From IMG/VR virus record IMGVR_UViG_3300021378_000004: a stretch of 64,000 nt of DNA, one strand, 5' to 3'. Below, in pieces: positions 16,999 to 20,761 of the stretch. Source of the stretch: a virus. How positions within the stretch are numbered: the stretch's first letter is position 1; each line of letters opens with the position of its first letter. The position numbers and the translations under genes are program-made. The notes under the pieces were generated by a model. It did no database searches. It was not told where the DNA came from and saw only the letters and a program-made list of their open reading frames with translations.

Positions 16999-19212
16999 AT
17001 GCAACAATTTGTTGACACAAGGAATTTTTTGTCTGAAACTAAGTTTTACGAAGGCTATTCTCGTTATATGGAAAGCGATGGTAGATACGAAACTTGGGAT
17101 GAGGCAGTAGATCGTGTAATAGACATGCACGAACAAAATTATATTACTAATAATAACAGATTACAGCCATTTGTAGAAGAAGCTCGTACTGCATATAAAG
17201 AACAACGCGTTCTTGGTGCACAACGTGCTTTACAGTTTGGTGGTGATCAATTAATGAAACATCAAATGAGGATGTATAATTGTACATCGTCGTATGTAAA
17301 TAGACCAGAATTTTTTGGTGAAGTATTTTATATATTATTATGTGGTGCAGGTGCAGGGTTCTCTGTACAAAAACATCATATTAAGAAATTACCAAAAATT
17401 CAAAATAGAACTAAACAAGCGAAAGGTTATATTGTTGAAGATTCTATAGAAGGTTGGGCTTCAGCATTAGACATATTAATGTCATCTTTCTTTGTAGGTG
17501 GAGGCAAATATCCAGACTATGAAGGAAGAAGAGTATTCTTTGATTTATCGCAAATAAGACCTAAAGGCGCAAAAATATCTGGTGGATTTAAAGCACCAGG
17601 ACCCGAAGGCTTACGTAAATCATTGGATAAAATAGAACACTTACTTCAAGGTATTGTAATAGATTCCAAAGAACCAAGTGAAATTAAACCTATAAATGCA
17701 TATGATATCACAATGCATGCAGCAGATGCAGTGTTATCTGGTGGCGTAAGAAGATCTGCCACTATTTGTCTTTTCTCACCAAACGATGAAGAAATGATGA
17801 ATGCTAAAACTGGTAATTGGTTCATGGAAAATCCACAAAGAGGCAGGTCTAATAACTCTGCAGTTATTGTAAGAGATAAGACTACTCCCGAAGAGTTTGG
17901 CAAAATTATGGAATCAGTCAAACAATTTGGAGAACCAGGATTCGTCTTCGTTGAATCTACAGAACATACTACAAATCCATGCGTGGAAATTGGTATGTAT
18001 CCTCAGATCAATGGTAAGTCAGGTTGGCAAGGTTGTAACCTAACTGAAATTAACGGAGGGAAATGCAATACCGAGGAGGACTTTTATAAGGCATGCCGAG
18101 CAGCGTCTATCCTCGGTACCCTACAAGCTGGGTACACAGACTTTAAATTCTTATCAGACACATCAAAAAAGATTTTTGACAGAGAAGCTTTACTTGGTGT
18201 ATCAATCACTGGATGGATGAATAATCCTGATATTCTTTTCAATGAAAAGATACTTGAAAAAGGTGCAGAGATTGTTAAAGAAGTTAATAAAGAAGTTGCA
18301 AGCATTATTAAAATTAATCCTGCAGCAAGAACAACGTGTGTAAAACCAAGTGGTAACGCTTCAGTGTTATTACAAACTGCCTCAGGTATTCATGCAGAAC
18401 ATTCTAATATGTATATACGTAATGTTCAAATGAATAAAGAATCTGAAATCACACAAGCTATTATGAAGCAAAATCCGTATATGGTAGAAGAATCAGTTTG
18501 GTCTTCTACTGGTACAGATGTTGTTGTTTCATTTCCAATACTACCTAAGAAAGGTTCAATGTATAAAGACGATCTATTAGGTATTAAACATTTAGAACTT
18601 GTTAAGAAAGCTCAAAAGCATTGGGTTGAAACTGGAACTAATGAAGATCTTTGTGCTGATGAAGGTATAAGACATAACGTATCAAATACTATTATTGTAG
18701 ATGATTGGGATGACGTAGAAAAATACGTATATGAAAATCGTGATGCTTTTGCTGGCATTTCATTCTTAGCTATGACTGGTGATAAAGACTATAATCAAGC
18801 TCCAAATACTGGTGTCATTGATGCTAAAACTATGGTAAAGAAATATGGTGAGGCTTCAATATTTGCATCTGGTATGGTAGTTGATGCTCTTAAAGTATAC
18901 CCAAATCTATGGGATGCGTGTTCAACTGCTCAAGGTTTTGGTTTAGACTTATCAGTCGAATCTTCAGAAAATTCTGCTAGAAAAGATTGGGTACGTAGAT
19001 TTGAAAACTTTGCAAATAATTATTGTGATGGAGATAAGAAAGCTTCAGAAGGTTGTTTAAAAGATGCTTACCTATTACATAAATGGAATAAGATTCAATC
19101 TAATTTAAAACAAATTAATTGGAAAGAAGATATAACAGAAAAGAAGTATACAGATGTTGATACCCTCGCAGCTGCTGCATGTGCAGGCGGTGAATGTGAA
19201 ATCGATTTCTAA
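16999..19212 (+). CDS. nrdJ: class II (adenosylcobalamin-dependent) ribonucleotide reductase
   Basis: YNC, GGVRRSA, TNPCVEI, GCNLTE, TCVKPSG, C-terminal CAGGEC; no beta subunit adjacent. Confidence 0.9.
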   Translation: MQQFVDTRNFLSETKFYEGYSRYMESDGRYETWDEAVDRVIDMHEQNYITNNNRLQPFVEEARTAYKEQRVLGAQRALQFGGDQLMKHQMRMYNCTSSYVNRPEFFGEVFYILLCGAGAGFSVQKHHIKKLPKIQNRTKQAKGYIVEDSIEGWASALDILMSSFFVGGGKYPDYEGRRVFFDLSQIRPKGAKISGGFKAPGPEGLRKSLDKIEHLLQGIVIDSKEPSEIKPINAYDITMHAADAVLSGGVRRSATICLFSPNDEEMMNAKTGNWFMENPQRGRSNNSAVIVRDKTTPEEFGKIMESVKQFGEPGFVFVESTEHTTNPCVEIGMYPQINGKSGWQGCNLTEINGGKCNTEEDFYKACRAASILGTLQAGYTDFKFLSDTSKKIFDREALLGVSITGWMNNPDILFNEKILEKGAEIVKEVNKEVASIIKINPAARTTCVKPSGNASVLLQTASGIHAEHSNMYIRNVQMNKESEITQAIMKQNPYMVEESVWSSTGTDVVVSFPILPKKGSMYKDDLLGIKHLELVKKAQKHWVETGTNEDLCADEGIRHNVSNTIIVDDWDDVEKYVYENRDAFAGISFLAMTGDKDYNQAPNTGVIDAKTMVKKYGEASIFASGMVVDALKVYPNLWDACSTAQGFGLDLSVESSENSARKDWVRRFENFANNYCDGDKKASEGCLKDAYLLHKWNKIQSNLKQINWKEDITEKKYTDVDTLAAAACAGGECEIDF

Positions 19213-20250: not shown

Positions 20251-20279
20251 TTTACATTTGCAAAAAACTATGGTATAAT
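20251..20279 (+). promoter_or_regulatory. early promoter
   Basis: TTTACA-N17-TATAAT. Confidence 0.85.
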
Positions 20280-20330
20280 ATAAGTATAAAATTAAAAAAG
20301 AGGTTTTAAAAATGACATAGCAAAAGTAAA

Positions 20331-20485
20331 GGTTGAGAGATTGAATAAGGGAGAGCGATAGGCTCGACAATCTCAGAGGTTTACAAGTCTGGTTGGACTC
20401 AAGGAACCATAACCTACAATAAAAGCAACCCGCTTCTACCGCCGAGGGGCATACCTAGGTAGAAGTGATTGTTAGAGAGCCCCTC
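20331..20485 (+). ncRNA. candidate structured RNA (multibranch domain plus H-type pseudoknot)
   Basis: GC-richer gap with no annotated ORF, behind a promoter, with several complementary pairings (see findings). Confidence 0.5.
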
Positions 20486-20515
20486 AAAGAATTTTAACGA
20501 ATAGGAGAGTGGCAA

Positions 20516-20761
20516 TTGCCAAGCCCATCAGAGATACAATCGATGCTTCCACTATTTTTTCAACTCCTCTTCTTCGCAGTAGCTGGAGCATTGATTGTAG
20601 GTGTATTCTTTTCCATAGTTGGTTGGTTCTTTCGTAATGCAATTGTTATTATGATAATAGTTGCAATACTATTTGCCATCAACTATGGATATATCGATTT
20701 AACTAAATTATTTGGAGCTGTACAATATGACAATGCATCTATTACCAATCTATTACAATGA
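20516..20761 (+). CDS. 2-TM membrane protein
   Basis: TTG start after AGGAG, two hydrophobic segments. Confidence 0.65.
   Translation: MPSPSEIQSMLPLFFQLLFFAVAGALIVGVFFSIVGWFFRNAIVIMIIVAILFAINYGYIDLTKLFGAVQYDNASITNLLQ

Follow-up and report, generated by a model that had tools for sequence, protein, structure and literature searches.

The window, by which we mean the whole 64,000-nucleotide stretch analysed (IMG/VR record IMGVR_UViG_3300021378_000004), belongs to an uncultured T4-like marine myovirus, as judged by gene content and promoter boxes. It encodes a gp32-like single-stranded DNA-binding protein (57% to Methylophilales phage Melnitz and cyanomyophages), a late-promoter regulator, and head closure, tail tube and baseplate genes, and it carries T4 late promoter boxes. 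Positions 16999-19212 encode a B12-dependent (RTPR-like) ribonucleotide reductase whose closest relative is in Rhizobium phage RHph_I1_18 (61%); an enzyme of this type in a marine T4-like phage is a hint that the host uses B12. The RNA element described here sits among short early genes behind repeated sigma-70-like promoters (19905, 20251 and 21110), and the promoter type of 20251 recurs in the window at 342, 1048, 16935, 19905 and 21110. Just 5' of three early promoters lies a 12-bp palindrome-like motif (19862, 20228 and 21087; also 50575), which is also found in relatives and ahead of a promoter-less member of the RNA family (L143) and is possibly an operator or a cassette-recombination site.

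All parts of the element lie on the plus strand. The early promoter (20251-20279) has a -35 box at 20251-56 and a TG-extended -10 box at 20274-79, with 11 of 12 consensus positions, and transcription would be expected to start near 20286. A Shine-Dalgarno (SD) sequence at 20300-20304 is followed by a Met-Thr-stop minigene (20312-20320) that ends in UAG followed by C; the promoter, GAGG ribosome-binding site and ATG ACA TAG proposed in the initial annotation were all located. A 9-nt spacer (20321-20329), in which the first base (C), the third (A) and the two A residues just before helix P1 are invariant in the alignment, leads into domain 1 (20330-20415), a three-way junction of P1 (20330-35/20410-15), P2 (20337-43/20368-74, with a variable extension) and P3 (20378-82/20404-08). 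P3 runs via an invariant internal loop into P4 (20386-89/20396-99), and the P4 loop (20391-95) pairs 3' of P1 with 20426-30 to form pseudoknot PK1 (20391-20430), which includes an A-rich linker with an invariant UA(A/G)A. Domain 2 (20431-20485) is an H-type pseudoknot in which P5 (20431-40/20458-67) abuts PK1 without a gap and the P5 loop makes PK2 (20444-50/20479-85). The RNA measures approximately 175 nt from the AUG to the end of PK2 (20312-20485), of which approximately 155 nt are folded. These boundaries follow from locus L003, which was found with a 3' pseudoknot pattern search and has another promoter and another downstream gene, yet is exactly conserved from AUG to pseudoknot end. The element first placed at 20299-20500 is real, with its fold ending earlier, at 20485. 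The region holds no ORF of at least 30 aa on the plus strand. Outside the RNA, its downstream neighbour is an 81-aa membrane-protein ORF (20516-20761, plus strand) with no PHROGs or PADLOC family; it starts with TTG (20516-20518) in the window and with ATG in relatives.

Homologs were gathered from loci anchored on a neighbouring protein and by searching viral, metagenome and genome collections with a core motif. The core motif excluded the 5' end, so the minigene played no part in recruiting them. This yielded at least 121 distinct full-length homologs, 55 of those listed being below 93% identity and serving as the representative set for alignment (mean column identity 46%); because members are related and recombining, such counts overstate their independence. 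The family is common in marine viromes, and the listed homologs lie on contigs of T4-like and jumbo phages. A covariance model scored homologs at 79-165 bits and the next best match at approximately 15-20 bits, while searches with inverted-P4 and 5'-anchored patterns added only five further members, none more distant. The window, a complete 328-kb phage and a 132-kb fragment each carry a single copy. Rfam 15, one of the checks initially suggested, returned no match in the window or in any of 20 homolog loci, the best E being 3.3 with a cut-off of E<=10, ARAGORN found no tRNA-like domain in the element, and BLAST of three family members against cultured phages gave no match. Four RNA-bearing contigs that resemble phage early regions (L330, L331, L332 and L334) had been binned into Flavobacteriales, Balneola, Marinovum and archaeal MAGs. 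The first two and L334 match viral or metagenome contigs, and all four are likely mis-binned viral contigs; for these reasons no host was taken from the MAG matches. In all five loci that bear tRNAs (L144, L173, L232, L240 and L331), tRNA-Arg(UCU) is near the element, sometimes accompanied by Pro, His, Cys or Trp tRNAs.

Folding of the window region as a single sequence gave z = -2.57 against shuffles, and comparison of homologs, the second suggested check, uncovered a covarying fold. In a MAFFT alignment that was not fitted to the structure, P3, P4 and PK1 were 100%, 97.7% and 99.3% paired, with two-sided changes in each; in PK1 these affect four of five pairs, giving eight distinct covarying versions. 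Helices that align poorly were scored by pairing each strand with its own partner or with that of another member, and own strands paired better for P1 (12.6 versus 6.8), P2 (15.1 versus 9.0), PK1 (12.3 versus 7.2), P5 (21.2 versus 11.7) and PK2 (19.4 versus 12.8). P1, P2 and P5 each occur in 25-40 distinct versions. Kinship among members inflates all of these pairing counts, but the covarying versions are nonetheless many. Further compensatory changes came from members found later, in P3 (L359, L375 and L390), in P1 and in the first P5 pair, and the internal loop proved invariant in 135 genuine members, although the search had left it free. The periphery is more plastic: P2 carries anything from a bare hairpin (L278 and L291) to an extension of 60 nt, and P5 is near-universal, whereas a few homologs lack PK2, which is also exchanged among lineages. 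Together, these comparisons support a three-way junction, an invariant internal loop and two pseudoknots. Frequent G-U pairs disfavour a function at the DNA level.

Every pairing segment of the initial annotation is present and complementary, with one G-U in the 10-bp stem that we call P5. Set against the 55 homologs, its five proposed pairings divide: GAGATTG/CAATCTC (P2) and the 10-bp stem with its H-type pseudoknot (P5 and PK2) were borne out, whereas two were mis-assigned. GGTTG at 20331-35 and CAACC at 20426-30 are only 35.5% paired, the latter segment belonging instead with 20391-95 in PK1. Likewise, AACCT at 20411-15 pairs with 20330-34 in P1 rather than with AGGTT at 20377-81, of which 20378-81 pairs with 20405-08 (100%). 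The small GAGC/GCTC hairpin is a variable, peripheral part of the element. The first description as an uncharacterised structured non-coding RNA behind a minigene is thus supported, with a different core topology.

Several other candidate roles for conserved segments were examined. The core hexamer equals a phage -35 box, but no -10 box follows it, so this resemblance is a coincidence. The invariant core can complement 16S helix h16 (positions 426-432), but 20% of shuffles equal this match and three members alter the base concerned with a compensatory P3 change, so the pairing was rejected; no rRNA complementarity of the element exceeded chance. P5 is weakly enriched in SD/anti-SD mimicry (4.06 versus 3.68, p about 0.01, uncorrected). 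The segment after P5 (20467-20478 in the window) contains AUG in 35 of 55 homologs and AUU in 16, and 28 of 55 have an in-frame stop at codon 3 behind a variable middle codon. The switch between AUG and AUU follows a change in the linker, so the segment is probably structural, a second mini-ORF being the less likely reading. Pairing of the minigene with the same segment was also rejected, as it is absent in variants encoding ML and MDYG.

The minigene is the most regular feature of the family. An AUG, one to three codons and a stop are present in 121 of 121 listed homologs, and a 4-7-nt SD in 55 of 55, mostly with an aligned spacing of 4-7; approximately 50 of 55 have a promoter-like -10 box within 100 nt upstream. 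The peptide is MT in 101 of the 121 and otherwise ML, MW, MKEP, MDYG, MTWT, MVWI, MRR or MRQ, variants that are scattered over the homolog tree, as far as recombination allows a tree. The four longer versions are each exactly two codons longer, and both they and several codon substitutions preserve frame and distance. For 113 of 121 listed homologs the stop and P1 are 12, 13 or 14 nt apart; the remaining eight, with 8 nt, form an Arg class in which a rare Arg codon occupies the place of the stop. The register is therefore anchored to the stop, not to the AUG. Of the 121 stops, 111 are UAG-C and 2 UGA-C, and the other 8 are UAA preceded by Arg codons. No stop tetramers are scarcer in these phages than UAG-C and UGA-C, which end 0 and 1 of 54 genes in the window and 3 and 4 of 323 ordinary genes in the homolog loci, and CGG is the rarest Arg codon (0.6-1.8%). 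A C at position +4 after a stop weakens termination. Glu-Pro-stop and rare-Arg-stop are termination-stall signals in E. coli (PMC3985003), which may not hold for the hosts here.

In 121 of 121 listed homologs the minigene fits the bar-like toxic pattern of an SD, an AUG, one to five codons and a stop, and it resembles the lambda bar minigenes, phage sequences that consist of an SD, AUG, one codon and stop and for which, as here, peptidyl-tRNA drop-off and slow termination are expected. The bar RNAs are not known to have a conserved downstream fold, whereas here a 155-nt covarying double pseudoknot lies at a fixed distance from the stop in all members. Moreover, the sense codon varies, which implies that, unlike in bar, no single tRNA is targeted.

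The genes around the RNA are far less constant. About 19 unrelated families follow it among the listed loci, the top neighbour occurring in at most 19 of 55, on contigs that are often short. Downstream genes have their own SD, with gaps of 16-35 nt that fall in each of the three frames, and several members have a fresh promoter, a hairpin or another non-coding RNA directly 3'. The Arg class, with UGA-stop members, sits mostly inside operons without its own promoter. The RNA is present in 30 of 80 syntenic loci, and in the closest relatives an ordinary ORF of approximately 63 aa takes its place with the same promoter and SD and with the membrane-protein gene kept. The RNA thus behaves as an accessory early gene that is exchangeable with an ordinary small gene, a pattern usual for host-takeover and counter-defence genes.

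We consider it about an even chance (roughly 0.5) that the element is an independent early phage gene for an RNA that functions as a complex with a captured host ribosome, a reading that appears to be the option of the initial annotation best supported by the comparative data. More tentatively, a stall minigene would load one ribosome and the pseudoknots would lock it at termination beyond rescue, as a decoy or inhibitor acting against ribosome-dependent antiphage toxins or against release or rescue factors. Host RNA polymerase would very probably transcribe the RNA from the early promoter, and the SD and AUG would, with similar confidence, load one 70S ribosome that makes a peptide of 2-4 residues. 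This ribosome probably pauses when its A site holds either UAG-C or UGA-C, in some cases preceded by Pro or Gly, or a hungry Arg codon; the conserved spacer would then fill the mRNA channel and the knotted domain would stand at the channel mouth beside uS3, uS4 and uS5. The fold might then bind or brace on the 30S subunit, slowing release and recycling, while so short an ORF leaves no room for another ribosome behind the first. More speculatively, the outcome could be a long-lived particle for counter-defence or host takeover, most likely a bait for factors that scan the A site, such as RelE-family toxins and release or rescue factors.

With the stop in the A site, P1 would start at +16 to +18, counted from the first base of the P site, and a conserved lead-in of 4 nt at +12 to +14. 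In bacteria the mRNA channel accommodates 11 nt past P-site +1, and a structure at the channel mouth can make ribosomes pause (PMC7282821); given this length, a terminating ribosome would abut the fold rather than melt it. Hairpins 11-12 nt away hinder A-site binding and a distance of 13 nt relieves this (PMC7282821), so that hindrance here would depend on the lead-in belonging to the fold. tmRNA and ArfB rescue ribosomes less efficiently when much mRNA extends 3', and cleavage in the A site requires the 3' end to be trimmed first (PMC8012679); the 3' pseudoknots might impede the 3'-5' trimming required for rescue by tmRNA, ArfA and ArfB. In tmRNA itself, a short ORF and stop are likewise followed by pseudoknots (pk2-pk4 of the mRNA-like domain), of which pk2/H5 binds near the channel entrance (PMC8012679), whereas the present element has its own SD and AUG, no tag peptide and no tRNA-like domain. 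The gammaretroviral readthrough signal (UAG, 8-nt spacer, pseudoknot) and the dnaX and HIV hairpins similarly place a structure at the mRNA entry with a stop in the A site; here there is no frame past the stop, the fold is larger and lies 3-5 nt further out, and the host is bacterial.

A held ribosome would account for a minigene that is universal among the listed homologs recruited without it, and for the stop-fixed register, the rarest stop contexts, the stall-type Glu-Pro and Arg versions and the gene-like mobility. On the other side, so constant a spacing may reflect no more than the minimum that a ribosome needs to terminate with P1 intact, and the C that follows the stop may have a structural role. 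P1 also lies 3-5 nt beyond the 11-12-nt spacing of the dnaX and HIV hairpins (PMC7282821), and the Arg class is in a different stop register (8 nt).

Among the alternatives, which are doubtful to varying degrees, the minigene may be a 5' shield, a ribosome cap against RNase E/J, behind which the fold acts in trans by itself, for example as a sponge or antitoxin mimic directed at some host defence protein by which the invariant internal loop is recognised. An invariant unpaired core in a single-copy, patchily distributed RNA of an early accessory region agrees with this rather doubtful reading, and a steric limit alone could fix the spacing. A shield leaves unexplained, however, the rare stop contexts, the Glu-Pro and Arg-Arg versions and the invariant bases within the would-be ribosome footprint. 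Type III antitoxins are short repeated pseudoknots; here the tandem short H-type repeats with conserved sequence expected of a pseudo-ToxI mimic are absent, the RNA is single-copy, and the H-type part is the most variable, dispensable and sometimes lost.

It is unlikely that the RNA is a portable cis element for downstream early genes, either an xrRNA-like knot that, with a 5' ribosome, resists 5'-3' decay or an enhancer of termination-reinitiation. The topology is like that of flaviviral class 1 xrRNAs, in which a three-way junction, a distal-loop pseudoknot 3' of P1 and a stacked hairpin follow one another, and xrRNAs block RNase J1 (PMC8374639). The element is mostly first in its transcript and independent of the gene behind it, and in 49 of 55 homologs the 5' lead-in could form 3 bp with the internal loop, but this pairing is broken in six and lacks covariation. 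In contrast to class 1 xrRNAs, the arm contains an extra internal loop and P4, the conserved bases are others and the minigene is obligatory, in a DNA-phage early region; the likeness is one of topology, and a ring threaded by the 5' strand would be only putative here. Furthermore, each genome has one copy despite many early promoters, relatives run the operon without the element, and it is often followed directly by a fresh promoter or another non-coding RNA, with downstream genes having their own SD.

A new self-cleaving or processing ribozyme, perhaps triggered by a ribosome reaching the stop, is quite improbable. The compact double-pseudoknot fold has invariant unpaired bases, and its order is loosely similar to that of pistol (hairpin-loop pseudoknot, A-rich linker, hairpin). 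A tentative helix between the linker and the post-P5 segment has one covarying position, with p 0.14 on unique combinations and slid registers nearly as good. No Rfam ribozyme matched even at E<=10, with the pistol, twister, HDV-like, hammerhead and hatchet cores among those covered; no unpaired conserved stretch separates PK1 from P5, and a ribozyme would not need a stall-type minigene.

Recoding by readthrough, frameshift, a gene-60-like hop or an IGR-IRES-like start after PK2 is still more remote. The fold begins 9-11 nt past the stop codon, within the 8-12 nt spacing of readthrough and frameshift pseudoknots, and a stop, 9-nt spacer and pseudoknot resemble the gammaretroviral readthrough geometry (PMC13517186). 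Readthrough, however, would add a median of two residues, shifted frames contain no conserved ORF, and there is no fixed frame to the next gene, which has its own SD in each case. Stop-to-core distances occur in all three frames, as do indels, and no frame is open; these observations argue against recoding and refute a decayed protein gene, which had been put forward as a way in which the initial annotation might fail. Dicistrovirus IGR IRESs share the size (approximately 180 nt), two domains, a 3' H-type pseudoknot and presumed direct ribosome binding, whereas the present RNA has another pairing order, no open frame after the last pseudoknot, which is dispensable, and a need for SD-led initiation upstream. 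Hardly credible, finally, is the originally suggested riboswitch or attenuator-type leader for the membrane-protein gene: this gene follows in 13 of 53 homologs, but it also occurs without the RNA, no terminator or SD-sequestering platform was found at the element, and the diversity of following families, the ordinary gene in the same slot and the single copy speak against a leader, as does the lack of the consistent downstream gene class and expression platform seen with riboswitches and leader-peptide attenuators.

Structured viral RNAs that grip ribosomes, among them IRESs and the elements for readthrough and reinitiation, are familiar from eukaryotes but, to our knowledge, hardly known in phages. 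If a ribosome is held on this RNA, it would represent a new mode of phage control over host translation and possibly an RNA anti-defence factor, and the natural variants single out one variable, the stop-to-fold register. The rival readings would still make it a new class of non-coding RNA, as the first xrRNA-like element of a bacterial virus or a new ribozyme. Literature searches returned no description of such an RNA, and the main text of PMC10690425 describes no such motif; the RNA may be among the unnamed viral motifs of that study, and its architecture would be a new RNA class as far as that main text allows the two to be set apart.

Some neighbouring sequences deserve mention. The ORF of approximately 63 aa fills the RNA slot upstream of the membrane-protein gene in L008, L009, L011, L016 and others, stands in tandem with the RNA in L010, and is a candidate functional analogue of it. 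In L137 (690-800, minus strand), and also in L236, approximately 110 nt of GC-richer non-coding sequence lies between the element and the next gene; the L137 stretch folds no better than shuffles (z 0.06). Five loci have a second structured non-coding RNA directly 3' (L184:848-1065, L194:1140-1356 and L310:56-272 on the minus strand, L216:4280-4500 and L261:1066-1285). It consists of a branched hairpin of approximately 65 nt with a covarying 12-bp closing stem, followed by another conserved stem, and has no Rfam match; L216 apparently carries two different copies of it in tandem.
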